DNA of 19,770 nucleotides from a virus (lineage: Duplodnaviria; Heunggongvirae; Uroviricota; Caudoviricetes), in IMG/VR virus record IMGVR_UViG_2695420763_000003; one strand, given 5' to 3'. The notes under the pieces are model-generated. The model saw only the letters and a list, made by a program, of their open reading frames with translations, was not told where the DNA came from and made no database searches. The stretch's first letter is position 1, and each line of letters opens with the position of its first letter. This document shows positions 1,405 to 18,561 of this stretch, in pieces. A program made the translations under genes and the position numbers.

Positions 1405-1924
1405 TCAGCAACCCCGGTATCAGTTCATCCAGCGCGGCTGCTTTGTTCATGGCTTTGATGATATCCCGTTTCAGGAAATCAACATGTCGGTTTTCCAGTT
1501 CCGGAAAACGCCGCTGCACCGACAGGGGGATCCCGTCGAGAATACTGGCAATTTCACCTGCGATCCGCGACAGCACGAAAGTACAGAATGCGGTTTCCAC
1601 CACTTCAGCGGAGTCTCTGGCATTCTTCAGTTCCTGTGCGTCGGCCTGCGCACGCGTAAGTCGATGGCGTTCGTACTCAATAGTCCCTGGCTGGAGATCT
1701 GTCTCGCTGGCCTGCCGCAGTTCTTCAACTTCCCGGCGCAGCTTTTCGTTCTCAATTTCAGCATCCCTTTCGGCATACCATCTTATAACGGCGGCAGAGT
1801 CATAAAGCACCTCATTACCCTTGCCACCGCCTCGCAGAACGGGCATTCCCTGTTCCTGCCAGTTCTGAATGGTACGGATACTCGCACCGAAAATGTCAGC
1901 CAGCTGCTTTTTGTTGACTTCCAT
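1379..1924 (-). CDS. Nu1: Terminase small subunit gpNu1
   Basis: 181-aa ORF MEVNKKQLADIFGASIRTIQNWQEQGMPVLRGGGKGNEVLYDSAAV... is near-identical to lambda Nu1 as recalled. Its 3' end overlaps the GTG start of A, as in lambda. Confidence 0.95.
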   Translation of the reverse strand: MEVNKKQLADIFGASIRTIQNWQEQGMPVLRGGGKGNEVLYDSAAVIRWYAERDAEIENEKLRREVEELRQASETDLQPGTIEYERHRLTRAQADAQELKNARDSAEVVETAFCTFVLSRIAGEIASILDGIPLSVQRRFPELENRHVDFLKRDIIKAMNKAAALDELIPGLLSEYIEQSG

Positions 1925-1944
1925 TGTTCATTCCACGGACAAAA

Positions 1945-2125
1945 ACAGAGAAAGGAAACGACAGAGGCCAAAAAGCCCGTTTTCAGCACCTGTCGTTTCC
2001 TTTCTTTTCAGGGGGTATTTTAAATAAAAACATTAAGTTACAACGAAGAAGAACGGAAATGCCTTAAACCGGAAAATTTTCATAAATAGCGAAAACCCGC
2101 GAGGTCGCCGCCCCGTAACCTGTCG
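1945..2125. other. cos: cos site: cosB R-element inverted repeats plus cosN cohesive-end sequence
   Basis: The lambda cohesive-end 12-mer GGGCGGCGACCT appears as its complement AGGTCGCCGCCC at 2102-2113. A perfect 15-bp inverted repeat GAAAGGAAACGACAG (1950-1964) / CTGTCGTTTCCTTTC (1990-2004) lies between cosN and the Nu1 start where lambda has its Nu1-binding R elements. Flanking sequence matches both lambda genome ends. Confidence 0.8.
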
Positions 2126-2312
2126 GATCGCCGGAAAGGACCCGCAAAATGATAATAATTATCATCTGCATGTCACAACGTGCATCTACGCAATCAAACC
2201 ACGTCAAATAATCAATTATGACGCAGATATCGTATTAATTGATCTGCATCAACTTAACGTAAAAACAACTTCAGACAATACAAATCAGCGACACTGAATA
2301 CGGGACAACCTC

Positions 2313-2507
2313 ATGTCAACGAAGAACAGAACCCGCAGAACAACAACCCGCAACATCCGCTTTCCTAACCAAATGATTGAACAAATTAACATCGCTCTTG
2401 AGCAAAAAGGGTCTGGGAATTTCTCAGCCTGGGTCATTGAAGCCTGCCGTCGGAGACTAACGTCAGAAAAGAGAGCATATACATCAATCCAAAGTGATGA
2501 TGGATGA
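2313..2507 (+). CDS. Small putative ribbon-helix-helix (Arc/CopG-like) DNA-binding protein, 64 aa
   Basis: Track ORF MSTKNRTRRTTTRNIRFPNQMIEQINIALEQKGSGNFSAWVIEACRRRL... has a basic N-terminus, then a beta-strand-like NIRFP followed by two short helices, the pattern of RHH proteins. An AT-rich palindrome-containing region (2150-2300) lies upstream. The fold is inferred from sequence pattern only. Confidence 0.45.
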   Translation: MSTKNRTRRTTTRNIRFPNQMIEQINIALEQKGSGNFSAWVIEACRRRLTSEKRAYTSIQSDDG

Positions 2508-5045: not shown

Positions 5046-6896
5046 TTATGCTGCCGGTGCATTTATCTCCAGCATCAGACTTTCTATCTCAACGCCATAC
5101 GCTGCATTTTTTGTAACATCCGTCAGCGTCAGCGCATTCAGTCCCAGTGTCAGACTGTCTTTTATAACCTGGAATGCCGGGCCAGCCACTCCATTCAGTT
5201 TCGGAGTAACCGTGGCACTGCCGGCGGTGAACACCAGCTCCAGCGTCTGCCAGTCGTTACCGTAATCGCCGAACTCCCCCAGCTTCGTGTTTCCGGCTTT
5301 CCTGTGATGCATCAGATTCACTCTGCCGTCAGTGGTCTGAGTGAAGTACGACATCAGGAACGGATTACCGGTACCCGTCATCGCCACACCATCAGGAACG
5401 GGAGCATCCGTATACAGATAAATCCCCAGCCCGAACTGATTGTTGGTCAGTGCGCCTGACAGGCGGAACTTACAGGTCAGTCTGCCGCCCTGTGTCAGCA
5501 GGGTAATTGCGTCATCCACCGGATGCGTCAGGGACCAGGTTTTATTGCTCTGCTTGGTGATCTTAAATACACCATCTGACAACTGAATTCCGCCATCCTT
5601 AATGCTCCAGCCCTGCGCAGCAGCCTCTCCGGCTGCCGGCAGCAGGGAGATTGTGCGAACGGACGTATCTGCAGACGGACCCGATGGCGTGTTGCCGCCG
5701 GGCGAGGGTTTGATTTCCGGTGCCTTACCACTGATGAAGGCTGAGGTGCGCCCGGCTGCGTTCAGAATAGCGGTTGCCAGACGATCCGGAATAATGCTCC
5801 TGCGCGCCCATGAACTGAAATGTGTCGGGCGGTTTGATGATACCTGGTTTCCATTCGTTCTCGATGCCGCACCGTAATATCCTGATGCCGGAATATCCGG
5901 ATCTTCTGCCGGCGCGTTAGTGGCGGTATTGACGCCGTTACCGTCTGTCATGAAGGGCACAAAATAAACGCCCTCACTCTCCCTGTTTTTGTACGCCCCG
6001 TAAATGGTGTTGTACTGGGTGCCGTAGGTATTTTTCCAGTAATACGTCGTGTCACCACAAATCCACGGCACATCTGCAGCACTGCCACCATGGCACTGCG
6101 CGTTAAACACGGAGAGGTCAGCACGAAACTGTGTCAGCATGGCTGTAAACAGCGCAGGTTGCTGTGCGTGGGTGGCGGCGCTCATGTCAAACTCTCCCTG
6201 CATCCAGCACACCGCCAGCAACACATTTTTCGGGTTCTTCTGTAATGCAGCTTTGGTGCGCGCAATCAGGTCCTGATATAACGGTTTACCCACACCCCAG
6301 CGCGCCGAATCCTGGCTGGCCCCCGTGTCCGCACTGAATGTCCCCTCCGCGCCCTGGGTAAATGCCGAACCACCACGACAGCATGGTACCAGCAGGATCC
6401 CCGCGTTATTCGGGATATACGGGAGCAGTTTTTTGGCAATATGTAAACCCTGGCCGACACAGCCGTACTGCCCTTTGCTCAGGTCTGCCTTCGGATGATT
6501 CAGCGTACTCATATCCTGCACATCATGCAGGCAGTGGTCGGCCGGAATAATATCGTTATATCTGCAGGCAGCCCCACCCGGCGTCACTGTACTGCGGCGC
6601 GCCAGCTGTTTAATGCGCGGATCCGGAGCATCGTATGAATCCGGCAGCGGAAGCCCTTCACCGTAAGCCATGGCATTGGATTGCCCGGCCAGTACGATGA
6701 CGTAGTACCAATCCGGCTCAGTTGCACCACTGACCACCACATCACCTTCTGCTGTAATCGCCTGCATCAGGGTATAAGGGGTTATGGCCACCGGACTACC
6801 AAACGGCTGCCAGCCCTCTTTCAGTTTGTGTGTCAGCTTTTCCGCAAGGTCTGACGGCGACGCCGCCCTGACAACATCATAATGTTTAAATGTCAT
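5046..6896 (-). CDS. nanS-p: Prophage sialate O-acetylesterase, NanS-p type (DUF1737 N-domain + SGNH/SASA esterase + C-terminal domain)
   Basis: 616-aa ORF. The N-terminus MTFKHYDVVRAASPSDLAEKLTHKLKEGWQPFGSPV is DUF1737-like. VIVLAGQSNAMAYGEG carries the GQSN motif of SGNH/SASA esterases. The C-terminal ~200 aa are Gly/Thr-rich and beta-rich. Position between Q and S matches nanS-p genes of Stx and related prophages. Confidence 0.8.
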   Translation of the reverse strand: MTFKHYDVVRAASPSDLAEKLTHKLKEGWQPFGSPVAITPYTLMQAITAEGDVVVSGATEPDWYYVIVLAGQSNAMAYGEGLPLPDSYDAPDPRIKQLARRSTVTPGGAACRYNDIIPADHCLHDVQDMSTLNHPKADLSKGQYGCVGQGLHIAKKLLPYIPNNAGILLVPCCRGGSAFTQGAEGTFSADTGASQDSARWGVGKPLYQDLIARTKAALQKNPKNVLLAVCWMQGEFDMSAATHAQQPALFTAMLTQFRADLSVFNAQCHGGSAADVPWICGDTTYYWKNTYGTQYNTIYGAYKNRESEGVYFVPFMTDGNGVNTATNAPAEDPDIPASGYYGAASRTNGNQVSSNRPTHFSSWARRSIIPDRLATAILNAAGRTSAFISGKAPEIKPSPGGNTPSGPSADTSVRTISLLPAAGEAAAQGWSIKDGGIQLSDGVFKITKQSNKTWSLTHPVDDAITLLTQGGRLTCKFRLSGALTNNQFGLGIYLYTDAPVPDGVAMTGTGNPFLMSYFTQTTDGRVNLMHHRKAGNTKLGEFGDYGNDWQTLELVFTAGSATVTPKLNGVAGPAFQVIKDSLTLGLNALTLTDVTKNAAYGVEIESLMLEINAPAA

Positions 6897-6939
6897 TATT
6901 CCTCCCGGCCGGGATAGTGTATTAAATCAGATATGGAGT

Positions 6940-6984
6940 GGGCTGTAGTCCGGAAGCCTGAATGACACACGGGGACTACAGCCC
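6940..6984. repeat. Perfect 12-bp inverted repeat (stem-loop) in the 5' leader of the esterase gene
   Basis: GGGCTGTAGTCC (6940-6951) and GGACTACAGCCC (6973-6984) separated by 21 nt, about 45 nt upstream of the ATG at 6896. No adjacent T-run. Confidence 0.6.
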
Positions 6985-7079
6985 AAGAAATGAAGAAGGC
7001 CACGCAGTTGCGCAGCCTGATAAACCCTGGTTAAAATCCACACGATAACAACACAACAATATCAGTATCTCATGCTATT

Positions 7080-7105
7080 GCCCGAACCCATTCGGGCATT
7101 TTTTA
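7080..7105 (+). terminator. Plus-strand intrinsic terminator
   Basis: GCCCGAA-CCCA-TTCGGGC (7-bp stem) followed by ATTTTTT. Confidence 0.45.
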
Positions 7106-7110
7106 CCCAT

Positions 7111-7141
7111 AAAAAATGCCCCTCCGGAGAGGGGCATTTTT
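7111..7141. terminator. Bidirectional intrinsic terminator
   Basis: AAAAAA-TGCCCCTC-CGGA-GAGGGGCA-TTTTT: 8-bp GC-rich stem with an A-run on one side and a T-run on the other. Confidence 0.55.
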
Positions 7142-7338
7142 GCATGCACATTCTTTTTCTTGCATGGTGCCGGGTGCCTCCCGGTGAATTCAGTATCAGC
7201 ACCTGAATCCGCGATTATCACATATACCTACTTGCTGATTGCCCCTCCGCACAGGGGGATTCACCATGCAGTAGTATTTTTAATAAACAGCAAATAAAAA
7301 AATCAAGCATTATGCAGGCTGTTTCTTTTTATCACCGG

Positions 7339-7470
7339 CTACAGCAATACCACAATGCCGCAGACCAGCACCCCATCCGCCAGCACCGACATGATTCTGC
7401 TGGTGAAATCCACCATCACCACCAGAAACAGCAGGAGTGCAGCCACAGCCAGGCGCAGTTTTACCGTCAC
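7339..7470 (-). CDS. Putative 43-aa hydrophobic small protein, start overlapping the stop of the TerB-like frame
   Basis: GTG at 7470..7468 overlaps TGA at 7469..7467 (GTGA). Translation is VTVKLRLAVAALLLFLVVMVDFTSRIMSVLADGVLVCGIVVLL, a single predicted TM helix. Below the ORF-track length cutoff. Expression is unproven. Confidence 0.3.
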   Translation of the reverse strand: MTVKLRLAVAALLLFLVVMVDFTSRIMSVLADGVLVCGIVVLL

Positions 7471-7960
7471 AGGTGATTCTCCAGACGAAGACCCAGAACA
7501 CCGGCAATCTCTTCCAGCACCTTGCGCTCTTCCGGCTCAATTTCGCCGTCTGCCTCCGCAATGGCCACCGCCACATCCAGCACATCTTCCGCTTCACGCG
7601 TATCGTGTTTCACATCCTCGATCTCACGTAACGCCGCACGACGACCAATTTTAAAGTTCGTATCCAGCTGACCGATAATGGTTGCGCTAATCGCATTAAT
7701 TTCTGACGTAAACGCGGACAGCGCAGGCTGATTACGCAGTACCTGTTCGATCTTCGCTTTCTAGGAAGCCTCACATTCACCATCTGCACAGGCCACCAGG
7801 TAGGCAGCATTAATAACCGCCTGTGCCAGATCGCGTTTCTCAAACTTTCCTTTTTCCGGTTAACGTGACACACCAATAACTCTTGTCGAAAAAGCCAGCA
7901 AGCTGAAAGACCGGTATTCACAACCACCAGCGCGTTTACTGTACTGGCGTGATTTCAGTC
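7467..7960 (-). pseudogene. Degraded TerB-family (tellurite-resistance-like) gene
   Basis: Minus-strand segments translate to ...AGFFDK..., ...PEKGKFEKRDLAQAVINAAYLVACADGECEAS, then in-frame TAG (7761-7763), then KAKIEQVLRNQPALSAFTSEINAISATIIGQLDTNFKIGRRAALREIEDVKHDTREAEDVLDVAVAIAEADGEIEPEERKVLEEIAGVLGLRLENHL*. These segments show TerB-like ADG and EEK motifs. They are broken by an in-frame TAA (7860-7862), the TAG, and at least one frameshift near the N-terminus. No Met-initiated intact ORF remains. Confidence 0.5.
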
Positions 7961-7990
7961 ATAAAAAAACCCGCCTGGCGACGGGTGTAA
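7961..7990 (-). terminator. tR'-like intrinsic terminator of the short pR' leader RNA
   Basis: Minus-strand RNA ACCCG-UCGCCAGG-CGGGU followed by UUUUUUUAU, about 40-60 nt downstream of the predicted pR' start. Confidence 0.6.
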
Positions 7991-8033
7991 AAAATCTTCT
8001 AACGTCAGGCATAAAACGCCCATCGTTAGGGCA

Positions 8034-8061
8034 AATTTACCACAGATTCGGGAAAAATCAA
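8034..8061 (-). promoter_or_regulatory. Late promoter pR' with adjacent qut-like region
   Basis: Minus-strand TTGATT (-35, 8061..8056), 16-nt spacer, TAAATT (-10, 8039..8034). The segment GGTAAATTTGCCCTAACGATGGG closely matches the lambda pR' -10/start region GGTAAATTTGACTCAACGATGGG as recalled. It lies directly downstream of Q. Confidence 0.65.
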
Positions 8062-8066
8062 CAAAG

Positions 8067-8888
8067 CTATCTGGTCACCTTTTTCAGTTGTTGTTCTGCC
8101 CATGCTTCTTCAATATCAAACTGCACCACCAGCGTATCGTAAAAACGTTTAACTGTTTTTTTCCATGTATCAAGAGATATGGCATCGGTTACATTACATA
8201 TGGCATTAAATGCCTCCGTTGAAGGTAATCTTTCATAGCCACGACCACCACAACGCTGGCAGTCTCTGATAACAGGCATACCACGTTTTACCGACTCTTC
8301 ACGATGAATGGCAACACCGCGCCCACGACAATCTTTACAGGCAGTGGATACCTCTCCCTTCCCTCCACACTCCGGACAGGCAACTTTTACCACCTCCCTG
8401 ACTTTTTTCCATTCCTCCCAGTAAGACGGATACACGCCTTTTGTGCACTTTGCCCACACTGGCGGCTTACCATCCGGATACTGGATCTTGTTTGTAAAAA
8501 CCTCGCTTTCAATAAATTTTTTTCCGTGACAACAGGGGCACTGTTTTTTGCTCGCCGCGCTACGGGCATAATCTTCAAACGCATACGAAGCCATAATACG
8601 CATCACTGCCGGTTTTATTTCTGCCGGGAGTTTTCTTAACGCCGCCACGCGATCACACCGACTGAGTGCATATTCTGTCAGCAATTCTGTTGCCCGCTCT
8701 CTGTCATTCATACTAATGCCCATTTTCCCAAGGAACGCAGAAAACCCCATCTCAGCCCAATTCTGTGTCATGCCCTGCGCGGCCATCACATCAGTGATAC
8801 TCAGCGTATCTTTCGACGTTGAGGCCGATGCATCAGTCAGGCCGGGGGATTTTGGGGAGTAGTATTTCGGTAAATCTTCCAGTTTCAT
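8067..8888 (-). CDS. Q: Late-gene antiterminator Q (Qin quuQ-like, 273 aa)
   Basis: Sits between rusA and pR'. The N-terminus MKLEDLPKYYSPKSP... resembles Qin-type Q as recalled. Contains four CxxCxGxG-like motifs (CPCCHGKK, CPECGGKG, CKDCRGRG, CQRCGGRG). Start overlaps the rusA stop (ATGA). Confidence 0.8.
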   Translation of the reverse strand: MKLEDLPKYYSPKSPGLTDASASTSKDTLSITDVMAAQGMTQNWAEMGFSAFLGKMGISMNDRERATELLTEYALSRCDRVAALRKLPAEIKPAVMRIMASYAFEDYARSAASKKQCPCCHGKKFIESEVFTNKIQYPDGKPPVWAKCTKGVYPSYWEEWKKVREVVKVACPECGGKGEVSTACKDCRGRGVAIHREESVKRGMPVIRDCQRCGGRGYERLPSTEAFNAICNVTDAISLDTWKKTVKRFYDTLVVQFDIEEAWAEQQLKKVTR

Positions 8889-9259
8889 TTTTTGACCTGC
8901 CCTTCAAGCATTATGGGGTAAATTTTCACCCCCAGACGTCCACCAGATACTGGCTGAGCACGAACGATATTGATTTCATCAAACTGCTCATCGTCCATTA
9001 GCAACCCCGCATGCGTCAGCGCATCCAGCGGCGCTTTCAGAATATTGTCCAGGTCACGGCGGCGCTTATCCGGTGGCTCGGCAATAATCTTTATCGCCAG
9101 CCTTCCGGACAGGCTTAATTTCAGCCGCTGCTGGCGAACAATAAGCGCCACAGCCCGGCGATAACGCTCACCGGCTTTTGATACAAAATATGTGCTGCCA
9201 CGACGTCGCCAGTAGGTGTTCACCGTCGGCGGGTAAAGCAAAACAAACTCTATACGCAT
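8885..9259 (-). CDS. rusA: Holliday-junction resolvase RusA
   Basis: 124-aa ORF with RusA family motifs (...PPDKRRRDLDNILKAPLDALTHAGLLMDDEQ...). AGAGG RBS upstream. Confidence 0.9.
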   Translation of the reverse strand: MRIEFVLLYPPTVNTYWRRRGSTYFVSKAGERYRRAVALIVRQQRLKLSLSGRLAIKIIAEPPDKRRRDLDNILKAPLDALTHAGLLMDDEQFDEINIVRAQPVSGGRLGVKIYPIMLEGQVKK

Positions 9260-9271
9260 CAGTAACCTCTT

Positions 9272-10318
9272 TTACCCGAGCACGCCGGTTGCAAAGGCGT
9301 GATCAAGAAAACGAAAAATTAAATCAACCTGGGAACCATGCTTTTCTTCAAATGCCAGCGGATCAGCATGAAGTTCGTTGTGATGCTCCCGACACAACGG
9401 TAGCGTGAAAATATCGTGGGCTTTTGTCCCTATTCCGCCCTGACCATGACCAATCAGGTGATGGGGATCGTCGGCTGGCTTACCACAACACGCACACGGC
9501 TGTGTCTTTACCCAGCGTGTGTATTTCTCATTTACCCAGCGGCGACGTTTAGGTCGCTTCATTAAAGATTCCGGAGACTCCGGATCAACAGCAATGCTGA
9601 CCACCGTCTTTTCCTGTGGCGGGTTTTGCTGGTGGGCGTGAGGCAGCGGCGCAAGATTTTTTGTGCGCTGCTTCAGTATGCTGGTGGCGGTCGGTTCTCC
9701 CGGTATGATGTCGCTTTCGCGGTACACCGGGCGGATTTTTTCCGCACGTAATCCCAGCGAACGACGCAATACTGCCTCCGGTAGCGCGTCCGCCACCTGA
9801 TTGCAGACAGCCCACCAGGATAATTCAGCCAGCGATAATTCCCGCTCCTGCGTGCCATTCATTGCATGGCGTATGACGTCAATCATCCATGCTGACAGGT
9901 TTTGGTGAGCAAGTTGCCCGAGTGATTCGGAAGTCTGGTCACGCAGCTGGTTGTCGCAGTGCCAGCACAACACCATCGCGCCGGTACCGTAACGATGTAT
10001 GACGGTTTCACTGTGATGGTAGTCACCATGAGGCCACTGGCAGGATTTGACATGACGCAGGAGCCAGTCAGACAGTGCACCAGCACCGCCTGCAGCGCGA
10101 ATCACCCGTTCGTTTCTGAAAAATGGCAGTAATGATTTATCTTCCGCCAGCGGCTGGCGAACGGCAGGAACGACCCCGGACGACAGATTACGCATGCTTT
10201 TCGGTTCAGGCTCCACCAGCACTCGAGGGTTATGAAATACCTGCATGGATTCACGGCCCGGCTTAACGATCACCAGCCCGAGTTCCGGTACCAGAACAGG
10301 TCGAAGTAATACCCGCAC
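9272..10318 (-). CDS. ydfU: DUF968-family protein with C-terminal HNH-like Cys/His motif (Qin YdfU-like)
   Basis: 348-aa MRVLLRPVLVPELGLVIVKPGRES... ending ...CACCGKPADDPHHLIGHGQGG...CREHHNELH. Matches my recollection of Qin YdfU. GTG start. Confidence 0.75.
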   Translation of the reverse strand: MRVLLRPVLVPELGLVIVKPGRESMQVFHNPRVLVEPEPKSMRNLSSGVVPAVRQPLAEDKSLLPFFRNERVIRAAGGAGALSDWLLRHVKSCQWPHGDYHHSETVIHRYGTGAMVLCWHCDNQLRDQTSESLGQLAHQNLSAWMIDVIRHAMNGTQERELSLAELSWWAVCNQVADALPEAVLRRSLGLRAEKIRPVYRESDIIPGEPTATSILKQRTKNLAPLPHAHQQNPPQEKTVVSIAVDPESPESLMKRPKRRRWVNEKYTRWVKTQPCACCGKPADDPHHLIGHGQGGIGTKAHDIFTLPLCREHHNELHADPLAFEEKHGSQVDLIFRFLDHAFATGVLG

Positions 10319-10765: not shown

Positions 10766-10921
10766 TTACTCCTCAGGTTCGTAAGCTGTGAAGACAGCGA
10801 CCTCCGTCTGGCCGGTTCGGATTCGTACCTCGCAGAGGTCTTTCCTCGTTACCAGTGCCGTCACTATGACGGTTAAACAGATGACGATCAGGGCGATTAA
10901 CATCGCCTTTTGCTGCTTCAT
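10766..10921 (-). CDS. hokD: Type I toxin Hok (HokD/RelF-like, 51 aa)
   Basis: MKQQKAMLIALIVICLTVIVTALVTRKDLCEVRIRTGQTEVAVFTAYEPEE with AAGGAG RBS. The track ORF 10766..10978 adds an in-frame 19-codon upstream extension (mok-like). The upstream leader carries a 9-bp inverted repeat (11043-11051 / 11070-11078). Confidence 0.9.
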   Translation of the reverse strand: MKQQKAMLIALIVICLTVIVTALVTRKDLCEVRIRTGQTEVAVFTAYEPEE

Positions 10922-11166
10922 AGCCTGCTTCTCCTTGCCTTTCGGCGCGTAAGAGGCTAACCTACATGTGTCTAGCATGAAATTGGCCTCAGATTAATGT
11001 TAGGCGTCTTGCAGGACGCGTAATGTTAACTGGGGCTTTTCTCTGTCTGCCTTACGGTGGCATGCCCGAGGCAGACAGCCTCAAGCGCCCGCAGCAATTC
11101 TACTTAACTCTCGCTTTACCGCAAACCGTTTTTACCCGATATGGGAATTCCCATATCGTAATGAAT

Positions 11167-18507: not shown

Positions 18508-18561
18508 TTTTCTGGTGACTTTTGGCGGTATCAGTTCTACTCCGTGACTGCTCTGCCGCCC
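18508..18561 (+). ncRNA. dicF: DicF small RNA (ftsZ-targeting sRNA processed from the dicB operon transcript)
   Basis: TTTCTGGTGACTTTTGGCGGTATCAGTTCTACTCCGTGACTGCTCTGCCGCCC followed by TTTTT matches the 53-nt K-12 DicF sequence as I recall it, with about 3 substitutions. It ends in a GGCGG...GCCGCC terminator hairpin. Coordinates are from my own line indexing and were not re-verified to the base. Confidence 0.75.

Follow-up and report, generated by a model that had tools for sequence, protein, structure and literature searches.

Gene order and the Q antiterminator

The stretch of DNA analysed here, hereafter the window, is the full 19,770-nucleotide (nt) sequence of IMG/VR virus record IMGVR_UViG_2695420763_000003 (Caudoviricetes). 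In it a gene for a Q antiterminator is followed directly, at its 3' end, by a pR'-type late promoter and an early transcriptional terminator, all features of this module lying on the minus strand (Table 1). That functional reading had already been put forward in an original prediction made from the letters alone, which went on to describe a lambda-like promoter paired with a Q protein unlike that of lambda. The apparent mismatch is not real: we consider it highly probable (about 85%) that positions 8888..7963 (-) hold the complete Q-lambda-type late-gene control module of an E. coli lambdoid prophage, that is, an uncharacterised member of a standard and very common type. Judged by the surrounding gene order, a lambdoid early-right operon ends here and the late operon begins.

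Classification of the 273-aa protein by profile search, as had been proposed, gave a clear answer. Q matched Pfam family PF03589 with an E-value of 4.7e-50 and 168.1 bits, far above the curated cut-off of 26.7 bits; PF03589 is the Q-lambda family, distinct from the Q21 (PF06530) and Q82 (PF06323) families (PMC9388147). A Pfam scan of Q at E-values up to 0.01 gave just two families, PF03589 and PF00684, and no match to PF06530 or PF06323, while the control proteins 933W Q and DLP12 QuuD matched PF06530. BLASTP aligned residues 1-273 with residues 1-207 of lambda Q (32% identity, E 9e-41), the alignment being broken by a single large gap, and both proteins fall into phrog_127 (1.8e-112). Among PDB sequences the best phmmer hits were the Q-lambda chains 7UBM and 7UBN (9e-41), followed by 4MO1 and 7UBJ, the alignment with 7UBM_Q being split into two stretches, 1-113 and 182-273. 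An AlphaFold2 (AF2) model built from 43 homologues (pLDDT 80.5) was used to query Foldseek: the top eight hits were all Q-lambda structures (probability 1.00, best E 8.9e-15) and no other fold matched significantly. The protein is indeed Cys-rich, as predicted, with 12 cysteines; the description of it as unlike lambda Q does not survive these comparisons.

Conservation between Q and lambda Q covers the N-terminal residues 1-55, the helical body with its helix-turn-helix (HTH), the zinc-ribbon cysteines and a C-terminal VTR. In lambda Q the roles of these parts have been described, the N-terminal segment forming a nozzle on the exit channel for RNA (PMC9388147). The chief difference is an insertion of about 66 aa that separates the body from the lambda-type zinc ribbon and adds two CxxC motifs. 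In the alignment of 43 sequences eight cysteines are invariant and form four CxxC pairs (C117/C120, C171/C174, C184/C187 and C210/C213), the last two of which align with the zinc ligand positions of lambda Q; the arm would therefore have two zinc sites. Since the insertion adds two CxxC motifs, Q also produced a sub-threshold match to the DnaJ cysteine-rich domain PF00684 (4e-07, 30.6 bits, cut-off 32.7). The likeness consists of four CxxCxGxG-like motifs, with a weak Foldseek match to DnaJA2 (E 0.7); by analogy with lambda Q, the motifs of the window protein would sit in the DNA-contacting arm of a Q and not in a chaperone. Long-arm Qs occur in the isolated phages HK225, mEp237, SfV, ST104 and mEp460 and in Stx2c phages, and the long-arm form is therefore functional. 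Sequence and model together indicate that the window protein belongs with the lambda-family Qs and has a zinc arm of enlarged size.

Its label as a Qin-type Q stands in part. Q is nearer to QuuQ (YdfT) of the K-12 Qin prophage (40% identity), itself a long-arm PF03589 protein, than to lambda Q; QuuQ lacks a sub-insertion of about 20 aa present in the arm of the window Q, and the two differ in recognition helix and promoter spacer, as described in the next section.

The late promoter, its spacer and the specificity of Q

Downstream of the Q stop codon the minus-strand sequence is ctttgTTGATTtttcccgaatctgTGgTAAATTtgccctAACGATGGGcgttttatgcctgaCGTTagaagattttttacACCCGTCgccaGGCGGGTTTTTTTat. Within this region GGTAAATTTGCCCTAACGATGGG, at 8041..8019 (-), agrees with lambda pR' (GGTAAATTTGACTCAACGATGGG) at 20 of 23 bases; it is the sole such site in the window, and no match was obtained in any of 200 dinucleotide shuffles. 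The lambda-like character of the -10 and start region, as originally described, was thus borne out. As regards its meaning, we gathered over 300 loci with genes for relatives of the window Q, lambda Q and QuuQ and read the DNA past each stop codon. Additional relatives recovered by scans with lambda Q and K-12 QuuQ were mostly near-identical and served for leader-length statistics and for a few pause-element variants. Some lambda-identical Q and pR' loci (L033-L052 and others) lay on short contigs of Kitasatospora, Bradyrhizobium, Oceanobacillus, Shewanella and Leeuwenhoekiella assemblies; these most likely reflect contamination with lambda DNA.

Every clade of the Q-lambda family carries a -10 hexamer and, 6 nt later, AACGATGGG; of 64 unique promoter-leaders in the family, 48 have this motif without a mismatch and 58 with at most one. 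The combination TAAATT...AACGATGGG is absent from the pR' regions beside the PF06530 Qs of 933W and DLP12. In lambda the bases contacted by sigma-70 are those of the -10 hexamer and of a -10-like pause element with GGG (PMC9388147, PMC4005639). The comparison indicates that the lambda-like bases are a family-wide signature of sigma-70 contacts and not a borrowed promoter. The nearest relatives do not retain the TTG by which the lambda match is extended (TAAATTTG), and it may be incidental.

We place the transcription start, by analogy, at A8027, because both the 194-nt lambda span (L001 1088..1281, ending in the T-run of tR') and the 5' nucleotide of the P22 late RNA (annotated in the curated record BK000583) begin at the first A of AACGAT. 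Sigma-dependent pausing at AACGAT and the following GGG, both identical in lambda and P22, would likewise follow the lambda case, in which pausing at this element has been published (PMC9388147, PMC4005639). A weak hairpin at 8033..8017 (-), GCCC/GGGC, was considered as a terminator and rejected: it extends across both the start and the pause element, relatives do not preserve its left arm, and it probably arose by chance.

The interval between the -35 and -10 elements, TTTCCCGAATCTGTGG (16 nt), differs from that of lambda, TATTGAATAAAATTGGG (17 nt), and lambda also differs from the window in that only the latter is noted to carry an extended -10. Lambda Q binds between -35 and -10, with its body at one end of a 13-bp site and its arm at the other (PMC9388147). 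At the corresponding place the window has the block TTTTCCCGAATCTGTG (-29..-14). Beside Qs only 51-59% identical to that of the window, from Enterobacter, Dryocola, Kalamiella, Erwinia and Chimaeribacter, this block is 88-100% identical, whereas the same comparisons gave 0-36% identity for the sequence immediately upstream and for the leader from +10 onwards; in these relatives the -35 position is occupied by TTTACT. Beside other Q clades the identity of the block drops to 38-50%, which is background.

The type of spacer tracks the type of HTH recognition helix, five helix types going with five spacer types. The window clade pairs SLDTWKK with TTTTCCCGAA.CTGTGG; lambda and P22 pair TQPTWSR with TTGAATAA..TTGGG; the Qin type pairs QWY.GYA with ATTCAAAAA..TGG; the loci L019, L014 and L013 pair PETTWRR or PETSWRN with TGGCG.T.TTTGT; and locus L056 has a further distinct helix and a further distinct spacer. 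In full, the helix regions read SLDTWKKTVK in the window, TQPTWSRTVK in lambda and LTDYQWYKGYA in Qin. The Q of L056 (Entomohabitans, 1501..2313) is instructive in that it has a window-like long arm, including the sub-insertion QYPDGKPPxWAKCTKG, but a different helix and spacer; it therefore appears to be the helix that sets the class, and arm and HTH seem to evolve as separate modules. Because TTTTCCCGAATCTGTG is conserved in the clade beside diverged Qs and tracks the recognition helix, it is likely to be the cognate Q-binding element.

These comparisons narrow the question, raised originally, of which specificity class operates here. Qin carries the spacer ATTTTTCAAAAAATATGGA, which at 50% identity to that of the window is again background, and the window Q and K-12 QuuQ probably differ in binding specificity. 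The locus does not share the recognition helix and spacer of K-12 Qin, and its lambda likeness comprises two family sigma elements, the -10 and AACGAT with GGG. The class question is fair in a narrower form, in which the spacer differs from those of both lambda and Qin and no mismatch across families is involved. The window Q probably represents a specificity class of its own within the lambda family, neither that of lambda nor that of K-12 Qin.

The same material bears on the idea that a lambda-type pR' was recombined beside a heterologous Q, one either unable to use it or using it by a non-lambda mechanism. Lambdoid phages are mosaic, and joints can be seen here: positions +10..+27 of the window leader (8001..8018) are 78% identical to the K-12 Qin leader (L003 4400..4417), though the Qs are only 40% identical, and in L007 and L008 a window-type Q and spacer are joined to a long leader like that of lambda 6S RNA. 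These joints, however, lie downstream of the pause element, with none between Q and promoter; Q, spacer and pause element stay together from 100% to 51% Q identity across several genera and are the unit that travels; and Q itself is a member of the Q-lambda family. A mismatched mosaic is on this evidence very improbable and largely refuted.

The short leader and its RNA

As originally reported, a terminator lies some 40-60 nt downstream of the start, against about 194 nt in lambda: the tR' stem occupies +42..+59 and the T-run extends to +65. The terminated RNA is accordingly predicted to be about 65 nt long (63-66). Across the family a first hairpin with a T-run begins at +48..+62 in 40 of 44 unique leaders beside window-type Qs, 30 of 33 beside Qin-type Qs and 20 of 31 beside lambda-type Qs, and the annotation of P22, which has a lambda-type Q, puts the end of t late at +59 (BK000583). 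The short leader is therefore the family norm, and the 194-nt 6S RNA of lambda a minority form. Terminator sequences are unrelated between clades while their position is kept, which argues for function. Within the close clade, covariation of the terminator was uninformative, as the stem core CCCGC/GCGGG is nearly invariant.

When folded, the leader showed a hairpin at its 5' end (+1..+27) and the terminator, joined by an A/U-rich linker (-21.3 kcal/mol, z -2.75). In the 5' stem the first four nucleotides of the pause element, AACG, would pair with CGUU at +24..+27. CGTT is the commonest 4-mer between +15 and +36, present in 59 of 64 unique family leaders, and its position ranges from +16 to +32; this variability argues for pairing and not for a DNA signal at a fixed distance. 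P22 also has a CGTT that could serve as partner in a 5' stem-loop. Alignment of 21 diverse leaders with MAFFT followed by RNAalifold yielded no predicted structure, since the loops differ in length and the columns of the 3' partner are misaligned. Each sequence was instead folded separately (minimum free energy, MFE, of +1..+34), with only +10..+34 shuffled as a control: of 21 non-redundant leaders, 15 had nucleotides 1-4 all paired, where 0.95 would be expected. In two lambda-type relatives pairing is preserved by double changes, AATGA/TCATT (L049) and AACAA/TTGTT (L016). Several recent E. coli point variants are uncompensated. Further leaders listed for the AACG/CGUU stem-loop are L005-L031 and L314 (1152..1175). 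No published description of the stem-loop was found in a search that left the older lambda literature outside. Speculatively, it could have a protective role at the 5' end, or exert an effect once the Q nozzle has been threaded by the RNA.

The approximately 65-nt pR'-tR' RNA might itself be what the locus chiefly produces in lysogens, namely a small RNA (sRNA) of the Hfq type that is made constitutively and acts in trans, a role compatible with that of an antitermination leader. Its shape would suit this (5' hairpin, A/U-rich linker, terminator with U7), and precedents exist: StxS, for which such a role has been shown, is made from pR' by early termination, binds Hfq and is processed from 258 nt to 74 nt (PMC7547250), and lambda 6S RNA, for which a similar role has been suggested, is reported on Hfq and present in lysogens (bioRxiv 2024.10.31.621285). 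Moreover, among 5426 complete E. coli genomes 1674 (about 31%) carry the 112-nt promoter-leader (7955..8066, -), in up to four copies per genome, and no annotated feature underlies it at any listed match. On the other side, the linker, which would be the likeliest seed, varies among close relatives; a scan of 7900..8100 gave no Rfam family at the gathering score, only terminator-driven sub-threshold matches at E-values up to 10; and a full-text literature search for leader sequence strings, and for quuQ/ydfT together with Hfq, returned nothing on expression or targets (QuuQ with antitermination returned one irrelevant paper). We regard this role as rather doubtful. That the transcript is a constitutive regulatory RNA in lysogens and, jointly, the 5' stem-loop a functional RNA element of Q-lambda-family late transcripts is a tentative suggestion at best.

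Two known sRNAs were tried and rejected as identities for the leader. HnrS, a 66-nt multicopy prophage sRNA with a 15-nt complement to the mazF end (PMC13502914), fits in size and late-region location, but the required mazF 3'-end complement was found neither in the leader nor in the window nor in the more than 300 relatives' loci. StxS belongs to the clade of the 144-aa Q.

Table 1. Features of the late control module and neighbouring genes in the window. Positions relative to the predicted start are given with a sign.
Feature	Position	Strand	Basis or remark
DUF968 gene	10318..9272	-	early-right operon
rusA	9259..8885	-	early-right operon
Q antiterminator gene	8067..8888	-	open reading frame (ORF) of 273 aa, 12 Cys; stop codon 8069..8067, 5 nt before the -35 hexamer
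Putative -35 hexamer of pR', TTGATT	8056..8061	-	read from the sequence; 16-nt spacer follows
Clade-specific spacer block TTTTCCCGAATCTGTG (-29..-14), candidate Q-binding element	8041..8056	-	conservation; placement follows the lambda case
Extended -10, TGG + TAAATT	8034..8042	-	hexamer identical to lambda pR' -10
Predicted +1 (A8027) and sigma-70 pause element AACGAT (+1..+6), GGG (+7..+9)	8019..8027	-	identical in lambda and P22
Predicted 5' stem-loop	8001..8027	-	MFE fold: AACG (+1..+4) with CGUU (+24..+27); GGGCGU with AUGCCU
A/U-rich single-stranded linker AGAAGAUUUUUUAC between the two hairpins	7987..8000	-	fold; varies among close relatives
Intrinsic terminator tR': stem ACCCGTC/GGCGGGT, loop GCCA, then T7	7963..7986	-	terminator scan and fold; hairpin 7986..7969, seven T 7969..7963
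TerB-family pseudogene with internal stop	~7467..7829	-	annotation of identical RefSeq sequence; first late-operon gene past tR'
Small DUF3927 gene	~7339..7470	-	same RefSeq annotation; after the TerB pseudogene
STnc100	7105..7295	-	Rfam above gathering score, 146 bits
AgvB (anti-GcvB sRNA)	7043..7104	+	Rfam above gathering score, 96.5 bits
Sialate esterase gene	6896..5046	-	lysis genes come next

STnc100 and AgvB both lie between tR' and the esterase gene. Elsewhere in the window Rfam gave the sok antitoxin RNA (115 bits), which adjoins a hok-like ORF, and DicF RNA (71.5 bits) in the prophage early region; these are listed as 10916..11090 (-) and 18510..18561 (+).

Proposed operation of the module and its significance

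By analogy with the published work on lambda and P22, the module would operate as follows. RNA polymerase carrying sigma-70 would start constitutively at pR', from the -35, -10 and +1 positions of Table 1; sigma region 2 would then re-bind the -10-like AACGAT, and the polymerase would pause at about +16 to +18. Without Q, transcription would end at the hairpin and T7 (+42..+65) and release the 65-nt RNA. Once the early-right operon (DUF968 gene, rusA, Q) is on, Q would bind TTTTCCCGAATCTGTG through its HTH body and zinc arm and load onto the paused complex, which would become terminator-resistant and read through into the lysis and morphogenesis genes, including stx2 in some relatives.

The last point is illustrated by the Stx2a-converting phage Stx2_EH1910 (L002, LC567834, 6013..9810). 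Window positions 7900..8900 are 99.6% identical in DNA to this phage, in which a 100% identical Q protein and the 99.6% identical Q-pR' stretch lie 5' of a methylase gene, three tRNAs and stx2AB, so that the window's Q class would control Shiga toxin 2a in at least one phage. Positions 6900..8900 are in addition 100% identical to chromosomal prophage DNA in several E. coli strains, for example 2013C-4830.

With lambda Q/pR'/qut/6S RNA-tR' (PF03589; 4MO1, 7UBJ-7UBN) the module shares full-length Q homology, TAAATT, AACGAT with GGG at the start, a promoter directly after Q and a terminator before the lysis genes. The arrangement in P22 (gene 23, P late and t late) has the same layout and short leader, with a 207-aa lambda-type Q, a lambda-type spacer and terminator and linker sequences unrelated to those of the window. 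K-12 Qin shares the short-leader plan. The Q21-family systems (PF06530), namely 933W Q with StxS and DLP12 QuuD, have the same genome position and the same logic (Q, then pR', then an early terminator), and early termination in 933W-type phages yields a small RNA with a regulatory role; the Q proteins of these systems belong to an unrelated family. The resemblance to lambda is homology of the sigma-contacting parts, and the differences lie in the Q arm, with its putative second zinc site, in a different putative Q-binding element and in the shortness of the leader.

Several points weigh against this interpretation. A literature search found no transcription, pausing, binding or antitermination data for the window's Q class. 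Measured against the consensus the promoter is weak, with a score of 8 of 12, and a generic scan with a threshold of 9 did not call it. The assignment of the spacer draws on conservation and on the published placement of lambda Q, the exact lambda Q-binding sequence not being part of the comparison. The TerB pseudogene just downstream of the module is a sign of some prophage decay, and close relatives carry uncompensated pause-element changes (AATGAT, AAAGAT, AACAAT), so that some copies of the module may be inactive. Pseudogene and variants are also what would be expected if the locus were the relic of a cryptic prophage, no longer functional and conserved merely through recent common descent, and many E. 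coli prophages are defective. Yet the Q ORF is intact and its protein is found in identical form 4648 times; spacer, pause element and terminator layout are kept across genera in which the flanks are at background; and the near-identical unit stands upstream of stx2 in the deposited Stx2_EH1910 genome. We therefore judge a decayed relic unlikely and retain a Q-lambda-family control module as the explanation of the locus.

As the kind of system is textbook, this assignment by itself changes little. It does mean that the typing of Stx-phage Qs as '933W-like' or '21-like' misses the Q class of the window. The window Q clade would stand for a new Q-binding specificity in which a two-zinc arm does part of the reading, and the family comparison yields putative Q-binding elements for at least five lambda-type Q specificity classes, which could serve as orthogonal antitermination parts. 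Finally, the prophage RNAs known to derive from pR' are growing in number, and the short terminated leader and the 5' stem-loop conserved in it are candidate additions to them.

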